Shown here piece by piece: positions 23,243-26,134 of a stretch of 26,134 nt of DNA (its first letter is position 1; each line of letters opens with the position of its first letter). The DNA lies in UHGV virus genome UHGV-1624389, one strand, 5' to 3'. Source of the DNA: a virus. The notes under the pieces are model-generated. The model was not told where the DNA came from, searched no databases, and worked only from the letters and a program-made list of their open reading frames with translations. A program made the position numbers and the translations under genes.

Positions 23243-23581
23243 CTATTTCCCTGAATTTACGACGAAACTGTTCGAGCGGACTGAAGCATTCATGCTCATA
23301 ACCTTCGCGGAGGTAGATAACCCGTTGTGTTTCCGGCTCCCAACGAATGACTCTGACGAGCACTCCGTAGTGATCTTTGAACCAGCGGTTAACTTGTCGC
23401 AAAGGACTGTCTCCTTCTGCCGGTTGAAATCACCCACAGCCCACTCTGCAAAGCTGTGGGTTACAATTTCCCTGTCACCTGGTACATTCACTGCATAGCA
23501 ATATTCCACCTTCGCTTTTCCACCCGGTACAGGAAGCGCAATCAGTTGCGAGCGACGGTAGTGTGTTGTTAAACTGTTCAT
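23243..23581 (-). CDS. Hypothetical protein with ambiguous reading frame in its 3' half
   Basis: ATG at 23581 has a good SD (GGAGA, 9 nt upstream). The N-terminal half looks protein-like, the C-terminal half is Ser-rich and low-complexity, and an alternative frame (TTG at 23402 to 23223) reads more like a real protein. See findings. Confidence 0.3.
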
Positions 23582-24147
23582 GCGTTAGTTTCTCCACAAC
23601 CAGAAGCAATCGACGCCACGACGCCCGGAGCTGCACACTCGCGGGCGTCATTACTTTCTGAAATGCAAAAAATTTTGTAGACAAGTGCTGCATGCTCCTG
23701 CAGCTTCGAAATTGAGAGATACAGCTCGTCGTTAATTGCTGTCTTCTCATGCGGTTCCACTACGCCGTCTTCGATTGCTGAACGAATCTGTTTTGAATAA
23801 CTGCCGATCTGTTCAATGACTTCCAGCAGACGCTGGTTAATATCGGCGTTGTCCACATCCTCGACGTCAGGAAGAGACACAAAGACGCCATTTGCAGACT
23901 GCGCCACAGCATCAGCAATGAAGTGAGTGCCACCAGCACGCTGTAAAACCATTGCCCATCCCAGCGGGAAAATCTGATCGCCATCTGCACGAAGGCGGTT
24001 GAATAAAGCGTTCTCTGTTACATCCAGCCAGTCAGCGGCTTCAGCGTAACCCCCCGGCAACGCCGCGATAGTTTTTCTGACAGCTTTCACGTACCACTCA
24101 GGCTGTTTTTCTATTTTCCAGTGATGCTTACCCACGGTTAGCCTCAT
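23578..24147 (-). CDS. CII-position regulatory protein (YdaT-like, putative)
   Basis: 189-aa ORF immediately downstream of the cro-like gene, in the position held by cII / YdaT in lambdoid prophages. No motif positively recognised. Confidence 0.45.
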
Positions 24148-24178
24148 CGTTCTGTGGTTAAAAATTGAAAGTGTTCTG

Positions 24179-24379
24179 CTAATCTTTCGGATAGATATCC
24201 GGTCTTAAGTCAGATTTCGTAATTGCACCTGACGTGCATTGCTCAAGTTTTTTAGCCAGCACAAAACTGGCTTTTTTATAGCCATTGAAAACCAGCCGTA
24301 AGTAGCCAGGTGTTGAGCCAACTTTTCCGGCCAACTCGCCCTGCTGTTCTTTGGTTAAAGAGTCCCAATACGCTTTCAT
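24179..24379 (-). CDS. cro: Cro-like HTH repressor (YdaS-like)
   Basis: 66 aa from ATG 24379..24377 (MKAYWDSLTKEQQGELAGKVGSTPGYLRLVFNGYKKASF...), preceded by GGAGG. Divergent from cI across an operator-rich spacer. The longer 167-aa track ORF would overlap cI and is rejected. Confidence 0.65.
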   Translation of the reverse strand: MKAYWDSLTKEQQGELAGKVGSTPGYLRLVFNGYKKASFVLAKKLEQCTSGAITKSDLRPDIYPKD

Positions 24380-24385
24380 ACAATA

Positions 24386-24454
24386 TGTACCTCCGGTGTA
24401 CATATTACATGATTGAAATGAACCTTCAAGATACTTGTACCTTAACGGTACAAG
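24386..24454. promoter_or_regulatory. Operator region with divergent pR-like and pRM-like promoters
   Basis: Inverted repeats with GTAC cores: TGTACCTCCGGTGTACA (24386-24402) and CTTGTACC-TTAAC-GGTACAAG (24434-24454). Minus strand carries TTGAAG, 16-bp spacer, TAATAT for cro. Plus strand carries TTGTAC (24435-24440), 17-bp spacer, TTTAAT (24458-24463), placing the start near the cI ATG. Confidence 0.55.
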
Positions 24455-24469
24455 GGTTTTAATTTCGTT

Positions 24470-25144
24470 ATGAAAACAATCCATGACATCCGGCGGTCTA
24501 ACGCCAGAAAACTGAGAGATGGTGTTGGCGGGAATTCTTCCTTTGCCACTATGATTGATCGCGAGCCAACCCAGACCAGCAGGTTTATGGGAGATGGTGC
24601 TACTAAAAATATCGGTGACAGCATGGCACGACACATCGAAAAATGTTTCGACCTGCCTGTCGGATGGCTCGATCAAGAACACCAGACAACGAACATCACA
24701 AAAAAACCTGATGTTTCAATCACTAATAAACAAATCACATTAGTCCCTGTCATATCATGGGTACAGGCCGGAGCATGGAAAGAAGTTGGATATTCTGAGG
24801 TTGATTTGAGCACAGCAGAAACGTATCCCTGCCCTGTACCCTGTGGGGAAATGACTTATATCTTGCGGGTGATAGGTGATTCAATGATTGATGAGTACCG
24901 CCCGGGAGACATGATTTTTGTCGATCCTGAAGTACCTGCCTGCCACGGTGACGACGTTATTGCATTGATGCACGATACAGGCGAAACCACCTTCAAAAGG
25001 TTGATAGAAGATGGGACACAGCGTTATCTCAAAGCGTTAAACCCAAACTGGCCTGAGCCTTACATTAAGATCAACGGTAATTGCTCTATAATTGGTACAG
25101 TGATTTTCTCAGGAAAACCAAGAAGATACAAAATCAAAGCCTAA
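24470..25144 (+). CDS. cI: CI-like repressor (HTH plus S24 LexA-like autopeptidase domain)
   Basis: 224 aa with a C-terminal ...VIGDSMIDEYRPGDMIFVDP...TFKRL... segment (Ser in GDSM, Lys in FKRL) typical of the S24 fold. Divergent from cro. Confidence 0.85.
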   Translation: MKTIHDIRRSNARKLRDGVGGNSSFATMIDREPTQTSRFMGDGATKNIGDSMARHIEKCFDLPVGWLDQEHQTTNITKKPDVSITNKQITLVPVISWVQAGAWKEVGYSEVDLSTAETYPCPVPCGEMTYILRVIGDSMIDEYRPGDMIFVDPEVPACHGDDVIALMHDTGETTFKRLIEDGTQRYLKALNPNWPEPYIKINGNCSIIGTVIFSGKPRRYKIKA

Positions 25145-25156
25145 TCAATGTTTATG

Positions 25157-25179
25157 AACCTGCTTCGGCAGGTTTTTTT
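25157..25179 (+). terminator. Intrinsic terminator downstream of cI
   Basis: AACCTGC-TTCG-GCAGGTT followed by TTTTTTT. Confidence 0.7.
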
Positions 25180-25183
25180 ATAC

Positions 25184-25216
25184 TTGACAATGTACCTTTG
25201 AGATACATAATGTACC
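25184..25216 (+). promoter_or_regulatory. pL-like promoter with GTAC operator repeats
   Basis: TTGACA (25184-25189), 16-bp spacer, CATAAT (25206-25211). AATGTACC is repeated at 25189-25196 and 25209-25216, overlapping the promoter. Confidence 0.55.
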
Positions 25217-25321
25217 CAAGCGAAACAACGAACAGGCAGGACGCCCACGAAGTAGCCGCCTGGGGCATATGAAGTCCAGGATGATTCGTTAGCAACAAAA
25301 AAGCGCCCTACAGGACGCTTA

Positions 25322-25333
25322 GCTCTTTAACAA
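25322..25333 (+). promoter_or_regulatory. BoxA-like element (nutL-like)
   Basis: GCTCTTTAACAA matches the boxA consensus (C/T)GCTCTTTAACAA in 12 positions. It lies about 110 nt downstream of the pL-like promoter. Confidence 0.45.
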
Positions 25334-25434
25334 TCTGGTCCCCATCAACAAGTAACTGATAACTTGAGGAGATGTGAAATGCACAAAACAGAACCCAAAA
25401 TCGTCGCGCCTGGCTACACAGATGAGGAAATTTA

Positions 25435-26134
25435 TGAGTGGATGACAAAGAAGCTTGAATCGCCACGGATAATCTAGACACTTCCGAGCCGTTGATAATA
25501 CTGGTTTTCATATTCTGTCGGTGACATCTGATCGCTGGAACCATGCCGACGCTTACTGTTATAAAACATTTCGATGTAATCAAAAATATCGCTGCGGGCT
25601 TCTTCCCGCGTTCCGTAGATCTTTTTCTTTATCCGTTCGCGTTTCAACAACTGGAAAAAGCTTTCTGCAACCGCATTATCATGGCAGTTACCGCGACGGC
25701 TCATGCTGCCCTCCAGGCCGTGTGATTTCAGGAACGACTGCCACTCATGGCTTGTGTACTGACTGCCCTGATCCGAATGAACCAGCACCTGTTTTTGGGG
25801 ATTACGGCGCCATACAGCCATCAGCAGTGCGTTCAGGACAATGTCCTTTGTCATCCGGGATTGCATGGACCAGCCGATAATTTTGCGTGAGAACAGATCA
25901 ACAACCACGGCAAGATACAGCCAGCCTTCGTGGGTCCTGATGTAGGTTATGTCCGTTACCCAACGCTTATCCGGAGCATCCGGATTGAACTGTCGCTGGA
26001 GCCTGTTGGGCGACACGATACTGGCCTCGCCTTTACGTGCCCGCGGGCTCCGGTATCCGACCTGAGCCTTTATCCCGACACGTTTCATCAGTCGCCAGAC
26101 TCTGTTCACTCCGCACTGTTGCCCGCTGTCCCGC
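25435..26134 (-). mobile_element. IS3-family insertion sequence, partial; extends beyond the right edge
   Basis: Contains an IS3-family orfB-type transposase. The left boundary is uncertain: the TGAGTGG... stretch at about 25435 is a guess at the terminal inverted repeat, made from memory of IS3-family ends. Confidence 0.6.
25474..26109 (-). CDS. IS3-family transposase OrfB (DDE integrase core)
   Basis: 211 aa: ...WVTDITYIRTHEGWLYLAVVVDLFSRKIIGWSM...HSDQGSQYTS...GNCHDNAVAESFF..., an RNase-H-like DDE pattern close to IS3 InsF as remembered. The orfA/frameshift region lies outside the window. Confidence 0.85.
   Translation of the reverse strand: MNRVWRLMKRVGIKAQVGYRSPRARKGEASIVSPNRLQRQFNPDAPDKRWVTDITYIRTHEGWLYLAVVVDLFSRKIIGWSMQSRMTKDIVLNALLMAVWRRNPQKQVLVHSDQGSQYTSHEWQSFLKSHGLEGSMSRRGNCHDNAVAESFFQLLKRERIKKKIYGTREEARSDIFDYIEMFYNSKRRHGSSDQMSPTEYENQYYQRLGSV

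Follow-up and report, generated by a model that had tools for sequence, protein, structure and literature searches.

The cro-cI region of the analysed DNA (a viral sequence of 26,134 nt, referred to below as the window) appears, with high confidence, to be organised as a lambda-type switch, in which OR has three operators and OL has two, and each of the promoters pR, pRM and pL is overlapped by an operator. The overall explanation, in which these five operators are combined with a pRM start at the cI ATG, is considered probable. The locus as such is already known as the lambda-style lysis/lysogeny (immunity) region of an SfV/SfIV-type prophage. The whole 26-kb window corresponds to an SfV-like prophage, and the segment 24100-25400 was 98-99% identical to the Shigella phages SfIV (KC814930) and SfV (U82619); the identity was about 96% with a dozen Stx2c-converting phages as well as with phages cdtI and Ayreon. 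In the GenBank record of SfV, cI, cro and the terminator that follows cI are annotated, together with a 'putative operator region' whose limits correspond exactly to 24385-24453 (69 bp). Identical cI and cro genes are annotated at the same locus in SfV and SfIV; however, these records hold a block annotation only, whereas the region is split here into O_R1-O_R3 and O_L1-O_L2. The window differs from both phages also in an IS3-family element that truncates its pL operon at about 25474. In the literature searched, no published dissection of the SfV/SfIV region into O_R1-3 and O_L1-2 was found, and the searches on the cI of SfV, SfIV, Stx2c and cdtI phages and on the TGTACC half-site yielded no operator-binding or 5'-end data. 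The five-operator split and the leaderless cI mRNA proposed below appear to be unpublished, though not surprising, detail.

The cro-cI spacer is 90 bp long and lies between the divergent genes cro (24379-24179, minus strand) and cI (24470-25144, plus strand). The cro-like ORF codes for 66 aa, gave weak YdaS/HTH_3 Pfam matches and weak similarity to the solved 'antirepressor protein Cro' chains 8co2/8c7k, and is labelled 'cro: repressor' in SfV. Its Shine-Dalgarno sequence, GGAGG, was read at 24390-24394 on the minus strand, inside the central spacer of O_R1. The cI repressor gene codes for 224 aa and starts with an ATG that is not preceded by a Shine-Dalgarno sequence. The C-terminal domain of cI was assigned to Pfam Peptidase_S24 (E 1.5e-26) and is homologous to the corresponding domain of lambda cI, as solved in PDB 1f39 and other structures (E 2e-9), with FKRL of cI aligning to FKKL of lambda. 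In the translation, VQAG, GDSM and FKRL are the likely counterparts of the lambda cleavage site, serine and lysine, respectively. A helix-turn-helix was not matched in cI by Pfam at E <= 0.01; residues 1-76 gave a weak match to the solved repressor 5d50 (E 0.0018). Downstream of cro, a CII-like gene of the phage 186 CII/CP76 family was found (23578-24147, minus strand, 189 aa; Pfam Phage_CP76, E 1.3e-13), whose counterpart is annotated as 'regulatory protein CII' in Hafnia phage yong2 and which may in fact begin with the GTG at 24135. The cI transcript ends at an intrinsic terminator (25156-25182, plus strand; 8-bp stem and T run), which separates cI from pL and for which the SfV and Ayreon records give a putative rho-independent terminator.

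Two inverted repeats with GTAC half-sites had been placed in the cro-cI spacer by the original prediction, and both were found there. The first, ATGTAC-CTCCGGT-GTACAT, occupies 24385-24403, of which the previously given 24386-24402 is the core. The second, CTTGTACC-TTAAC-GGTACAAG, occupies 24434-24454, the operator proper being 24435-24453. The predicted recurrence of the motif at the pL-like promoter was likewise borne out, as AATGTACC is present there twice (25189-25196 and 25209-25216). These sites are real, but the layout drawn from them was incomplete, since O_R2, O_L2 and pR had been missed.

The operator dyad was defined as a 19-bp sequence, WTGTAC-N7-GTACAW or, more fully, WTGTACC-N5-GGTACAW. 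O_R1 (ATGTACCTCCGGTGTACAT, 24385-24403) and O_R3 (TTGTACCTTAACGGTACAA, 24435-24453) fit the dyad with 0 mismatches; O_R1 covers the edge of the pR -10 and the pR start site, and O_R3 covers the -35 and the spacer of the proposed pRM. O_L1 (ATGTACCTTTGAGATACAT, 25190-25208) has 1 mismatch; it takes up the spacer of pL and extends into the -10. O_L2 (ATGTACCCAAGCGAAACAA, 25210-25228) has 2 mismatches, with a good left and a degenerate right half, and covers the pL start site. The weak O_R2 (ATGAACCTTCAAGATACTT, 24418-24436) resembles O_L1, lies over the pR -35, has its centre 43 bp upstream of the cI ATG and has 2 bp in common with O_R3. With no more than 1 mismatch, WTGTAC-N7-GTACAW was found 3 times in the window, compared with a chance expectation of 0.08, and a count of 3 was not reached in any of 100 shuffles. 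When up to 2 mismatches were allowed, 4 matches were obtained, all within the two regulatory regions.

A weight matrix trained only on the strong sites of the relatives ranked the same five positions highest in the 26 kb: O_L1 (26.0 bits), O_R3 (23.3), O_R1 (22.1), O_L2 (13.5) and O_R2 (12.6). The sixth-ranked position scored 8.0 bits. Across the shuffled windows, the best-scoring position reached 6.9 bits in the median and 15.1 bits at most. Since the scores of O_R2 and O_L2 are lower than 15.1, we base the status of these two sites on their position and conservation no less than on their score.

The conservation was determined with a set of 19 non-identical spacers, consisting of the window, Hafnia phage yong2, Edwardsiella phage EPP-1 and 16 genome loci. 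The two phages were 69-73% identical to the region at the DNA level, and the 16 loci, which are from other genera, had a cI identity of 73-88%. Over all the relatives (Hafnia, Edwardsiella, Klebsiella, Pantoea, Rahnella and others) the cI identity ranged from 73 to 100%. In the OR alignment of the 19 relatives the half-sites were invariant and the 5-nt centres of the dyads freely variable; half-sites kept in sequence, with free centres and no compensatory changes, are the pattern of a protein-binding site and not of an RNA stem. In O_R3, TTGTACC...G.TAC was invariant, and in O_R2, TGAACC...AAG..C. The sequence of O_R2 in the window is ATGAACC-N5-GATACTT, the right half being GGTACTT in most relatives. 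The conservation of O_R2 is explained in part by the pR -35 that lies inside it. The spacing between O_R1 and O_R2 was fixed at 14 nt, and the CTCC inside O_R1 was invariant because the cro Shine-Dalgarno sequence is located in the spacer of this operator. At OL, the string TTGACA-ATGTACC-N5-GGTACAT-A-ATGTACC was invariant; it includes the left half of O_L2, whose right half retains only ..AC... The proposal that the repeats of both regions would serve as operators of one repressor is thus supported by their conservation, by their overlaps with promoters and by the S24-type cI encoded between them.

The promoter pR, read on the minus strand, was identified from its -10 TAATAT (24402-24407), found in a hexamer scan at a conserved position, and its -35 TTGAAG (24424-24429), with a 16-bp spacer. 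The TTG of the -35 (AAG on the plus strand) was invariant in the relatives. The -10 was TAATAT, CATAAT, TAGAAT or TATCCT, so that position 2 was A and position 6 was T in every case. The pR start site is expected at about 24395, under O_R1. The plus-strand promoter pL, located just after the cI terminator, consists of TTGACA (25184-25189), 16 bp and CATAAT (25206-25211), corresponding to 11/12 of the consensus; its start site is expected near 25218. Its arrangement with the dyad was invariant in the relatives, and it is an annotated promoter in phage Ayreon.

The promoter pRM had been proposed as TTGTAC (24435-24440), 17 bp and TTTAAT (24458-24463) on the plus strand. The letters are as claimed, but the promoter is weak, with 3/6 and 5/6 matches to the consensus and T instead of A at position 2 of the -10; it was not reported by the consensus promoter scan. 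The A at position 2 is normally the most important base of a -10, and by consensus rules this pRM would not be a promoter. In most relatives, position 2 was T, C or G. On the other hand, TTTAAT is followed by 6 nt and then by the cI ATG at 24470, so that the -10 ends 7 nt before the A. The same distance is present in the lambda record, where pRM reads TAGATA-17-TAGATT, 6 nt, ATG. The AAT at 24461-24463 and the ATG were invariant in the 19 relatives, and free variation was seen in the 6 nt that separate them and in the 4-5 nt preceding AAT; the 17-bp spacing from TTGTAC to the -10 was kept in 18 of the 19.

A Shine-Dalgarno sequence for cI was absent in all the 19 relatives, the best anti-Shine-Dalgarno pairing being +1.0 to -5.3 kcal/mol, and the cI start was ATG in every case. 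The corresponding duplex of cro amounted to -10.7 to -11.7 kcal/mol in 19/19. The cI start is annotated 39 codons short in Hafnia phage yong2 and 22 codons long in Edwardsiella phage EPP-1, which we attribute to a start that lacks a ribosome-binding site. The predicted leaderless cI transcript thus agrees with the lambda geometry, the invariant AAT and ATG and the missing Shine-Dalgarno sequence, and the noncanonical -10 speaks against it. On balance, we favour a leaderless maintenance cI mRNA with moderate confidence. The lambda cI message from pRM is a documented leaderless repressor mRNA. Experimentally mapped examples in other phages are PaaR2 of CP-933P, whose leaderless mRNA was determined by 5'-RACE (PMC8630535), and the repressor mRNAs of PY54 cI (PMC4488713) and Rac RacR (PMC9638921), both starting at the AUG. 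The mapped mRNAs of Rac and PY54 indicate that a leaderless repressor message is a recurrent design. Among the rows listed in the start-site tables of S. flexneri 5a M90T (PMC7132871), the operator sequences were absent.

The same operators could also be accompanied by a leadered maintenance cI mRNA, started upstream and translated from an internal AUG without a Shine-Dalgarno sequence, but this was judged fairly unlikely. One start for such an mRNA, near 24391, could be provided by the plus-strand hexamer TACAAT (24379-24384). This hexamer agrees with the -10 consensus in 5/6 positions, including the A at position 2 and the T at position 6, in contrast to TTTAAT, which has no A at position 2. 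However, TACAAT lies over the cro start codon at a position that is not conserved in the relatives, its candidate -35 hexamers match only 3/6, and a start from it would fall inside O_R1. Another could be provided by a CII-dependent promoter located within cro or further away. Just after cro there is indeed a gene for a CII homologue of the 186 type, and in lambda and CP-933P a CII-dependent promoter gives rise to a second, leadered repressor transcript (PMC8630535); such an establishment transcript would add to the leaderless maintenance transcript, as in lambda, and not replace it. Between cro and cII, CACGGTTA and TGTGGTTA were first read as direct repeats 20 bp apart belonging to a CII-dependent promoter. 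The relatives keep the inverted repeat CCACRG...CTGTGG at the cII Shine-Dalgarno/GTG instead, and the direct-repeat reading was dropped; no establishment promoter could be assigned between cro and cII. With an upstream start, the invariant AAT 7-9 nt before the ATG is left unexplained and the cI mRNA would still be devoid of a Shine-Dalgarno sequence.

Two further readings concern the repeats themselves. The palindrome at 24434-24454 was listed by the terminator scan, with an 8-bp stem followed by GGTTTTAATT, and the hairpin folds at -11.4 kcal/mol (z -3.35), as would be expected if it acted mainly as an RNA hairpin or intrinsic terminator attenuating rightward read-through into cI. The T-rich tail, however, is not conserved and reads, for example, ACAATGTTTAATTCTGGG in relatives, and on account of this variation of the T tract the terminator reading was rejected. 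As the dyad of O_R3 also recurs at O_R1 and pL, where a terminator makes no sense, and its half-sites are kept in sequence in the manner of a protein site, a primary role as a hairpin is very improbable. That the GTAC dyads are chance or compositional repeats with no regulatory function is effectively refuted: short palindromes are common in AT-rich intergenic DNA and WTGTACC alone occurs 12 times in the window, but three full dyads stand against 0.08 expected, the top matrix matches are all in the two promoter regions, and the half-sites are invariant across genera while the neighbouring bases vary.

The five operators and the proposed pRM start at the cI ATG suggest how the switch would work. 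A cI dimer is expected to bind the 19-bp dyad WTGTACC-N5-GGTACAW. In the lysogen, cI on O_R1 and O_R2 would shut off pR, and cI on O_L1 and O_L2 would shut off pL. Bound to O_R2, which ends 2 bp inside the pRM -35, cI could stimulate the intrinsically weak pRM, and pRM would be switched off when O_R3 is filled by Cro or by excess cI. Transcription from pRM most likely begins with the A of the cI ATG or no more than 1-2 nt away from it, which would give a leaderless maintenance cI mRNA whose translation does not involve a Shine-Dalgarno sequence. By analogy with lambda, RecA-stimulated self-cleavage at VQA/G would inactivate cI. The matrix score of O_R3 is similar to that of O_R1 and O_R3 overlaps O_R2 by 2 bp, which means that the filling order and the O_R2 activation of lambda may not apply here. 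Judging from this overlap, the occupancy of O_R2 (pRM on) and of O_R3 (pRM off) could be mutually exclusive.

The arrangement resembles that of lambda in the divergent cI and cro genes, the three dyad operators at OR with more at OL, the weak middle site that ends 2 bp inside the pRM -35 (the centre of O_R2 is at -43 here and at -42 in lambda), the proposed pRM -10 hexamer followed by 6 nt and ATG, the homologous S24 C-terminal domain, and the terminator after the cI transcript with pL beyond it reading in the same direction. In contrast, the operators are 19 bp long with TGTACC half-sites, compared with the 17-bp sites of lambda, and there are two OL sites here but three in lambda. The centre-to-centre spacings at OR are 33 and 17 bp versus 24 and 23 bp in lambda; at OL the spacing is 20 bp. 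The centre of O_R3 is at -26 here and at -19 in lambda, and this site, overlapping O_R2 by 2 bp, is by score as strong as O_R1. Further differences from lambda are the missing A at position 2 of the pRM -10, a YdaS-like Cro and a CII that belongs to the phage 186 (CP76) type.

The PaaR2/YdaS/YdaT system of CP-933P from E. coli O157:H7 is similar in its leaderless repressor gene, YdaS-type Cro and downstream CII analogue, and its intergenic region of about 97 bp carries several 18-bp palindromes over both promoters (PMC8630535). PaaR2 differs, however, in lacking the S24 domain and in its unrelated sequence; the palindrome consensus of CP-933P is GTTTAGTAA, and its locus contains a toxin-antitoxin pair. 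Rac RacR/YdaS and PY54 cI/cro have repressors of other families than the present switch, and their operators differ from those described here in sequence and in number.

The immunity module ends at O_L2, and the Ayreon, cdtI and Stx2c phages match the window only to about 25227. The first part of the pL transcript holds a structured RNA of 64 nt (25227-25290), which was recognised by covariation and is widespread in prophages. The core of this element was 95-100% identical in SfII, ST64B, ZF40, YeP1-3, mEp237, mEp460, SPN3UB and other phages, the immunity regions of which are unrelated. The exact core was present in at least 120 IMG/VR contigs, representing 108 distinct contexts, and in these contexts it was always located about 10-25 nt after a promoter- or operator-like sequence. 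The closing stem P1 and the hairpin P3 covary strongly: 94.7% of the cells are standard pairs, and in 9 of the 16 pairs both partners change. The covariation score of 0.49 was not reached in any of 500 shuffles, and slid controls stayed at 0.11 or below. It is almost certain that 25227-25290 forms a genuine structured RNA. In the Rfam search over the whole window no family reached the gathering score, and near pL the matches were at chance level. The covariance model built for the element scored 91.5 bits in the window and 87.5 bits in SfV.

The leader RNA is similar to put of HK022 and HK639 in its position just after pL, its size and its two-hairpin content. Homology to put was not supported, as the covariance model found nothing at HK022 putL or HK639 putL and the direct comparison of the element with HK022/HK639 put gave short shared words only; from the likenesses, a put-like function is still conceivable. 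After the 64-nt element there is a hairpin (25301-25320) and then GCTCTTTAACAA at 25322-25333, which we take to be a perfect rrn boxA consensus. The hairpin and boxA tail was present in 19 of the 108 contexts. The SfV record contains a terminator further down the pL operon, and no N gene has been reported for this phage group (PMC3851460), which together make a cis-acting processivity or antitermination role attractive. We tentatively suggest, with low confidence, that the pL leader RNA is such an element and would act on RNA polymerase in the manner of HK022 put.

The switch is one more example of the lambda type, with an operator region already marked in the records of the family. The same immunity module is found in Stx2c-converting, cdt-I and Shigella serotype-converting phages, and the defined operators and promoters provide exact targets for studies of induction and superinfection immunity. 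The start without a Shine-Dalgarno sequence explains the mis-called cI starts that annotation pipelines have given in the relatives. If the suggested role of the pL leader RNA is true, release of O_L would both start transcription and make it resistant to terminators without N, and this RNA may show how N-less lambdoid and SfV-like phages pass their early terminators.

The transcript from the predicted promoter pL was found to begin with a structured RNA of 64 nt (25227-25290, plus strand), the leader RNA, built from the stems P1 (25227-32/25285-90), P2 (25235-37/25255-57) and P3 (25259-63/25276-80). The GGAUGA junction was invariant, and strong covariation was detected among 32 diverse copies. 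At least 120 viral contigs carry the leader RNA, and the immunity regions that precede it in them are of many different kinds. The Rfam search of the window assigned no family to 25227-25290, and the covariance model of the leader RNA gave no match at put, the antiterminator RNA of HK022 and HK639. In these N-less phages the element may represent a new leader or antiterminator RNA that acts in cis.

Downstream of the leader RNA, at 25301-25333 on the plus strand, the hairpin AAGCGCCCUACAGGACGCUU is followed directly by GCTCTTTAACAA, which is identical to the boxA consensus of rrn operons. Hairpin and boxA together were also found after the leader RNA in 19 of the 108 contexts; this arrangement suggests that Nus factors are recruited to the pL transcript. 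The hairpin AAGCGCCCUACAGGACGCUU was also scored as a terminator on the minus strand in the terminator scan. In the case of Hafnia phage yong2, a tRNA-like sequence, GTGGTGTAGCTCAGTTGGTAGAGCGG...GGTTCAAGTCCAGCCACCACA, lies downstream of pL (about 2284-2356 of its locus L003, plus strand) and occupies the place held by the leader RNA in the window.

A mosaic joint was located at about 25227, the end of the operator O_L2. In the Ayreon, cdtI, 2H10 and Stx2c phages, the immunity module shared with the window stops where O_L2 ends and the sequences are divergent beyond it, and the same leader RNA was joined at this point to unrelated immunity modules.

In the cro-cI region, a -10-like TACAAT (5/6) at 24379-24384 on the plus strand overlies the cro start codon, and its predicted transcription start falls inside the operator O_R1. 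Many relatives carry CATAAT or TAATAT near this position, but out of register. The sixth-best match of the operator matrix (8.0 bits; CTGTACCCTGTGGGGAAAT, 24834-24852, plus strand) lies within the cI coding region, has a single good half-site and is probably due to chance. The cI homologues of yong2 (L003 1533-2090) and Edwardsiella phage EPP-1 (L004 1220-1954) are annotated 39 codons short of and 22 codons longer than the conserved MKT... start, respectively. Both of these differing starts are probably wrong, and their discordance is consistent with a start codon lacking a ribosome-binding site.

On the minus strand, the inverted repeat CCACRG...CTGTGG (24132-24157) flanks the SD of the CII-like gene and its likely start codon, the GTG at 24135, and is conserved at the same place in L003, L008-L012, L015, L017-L019 and L023. 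Since the conserved repeat brackets these two elements, the listed ATG (24147) may be 4 codons too long. On the pR mRNA the repeat could form a hairpin occluding the initiation of cII translation.

The first ORF of the pL operon, 98 aa in SfV (orf33), is reduced to 25379-25477 in the window, where it is cut by an IS3-family transposase ORF (25474-26134, minus strand; 211 aa listed) which continues past the window end. The early-left operon is thus interrupted, and the prophage may be defective.
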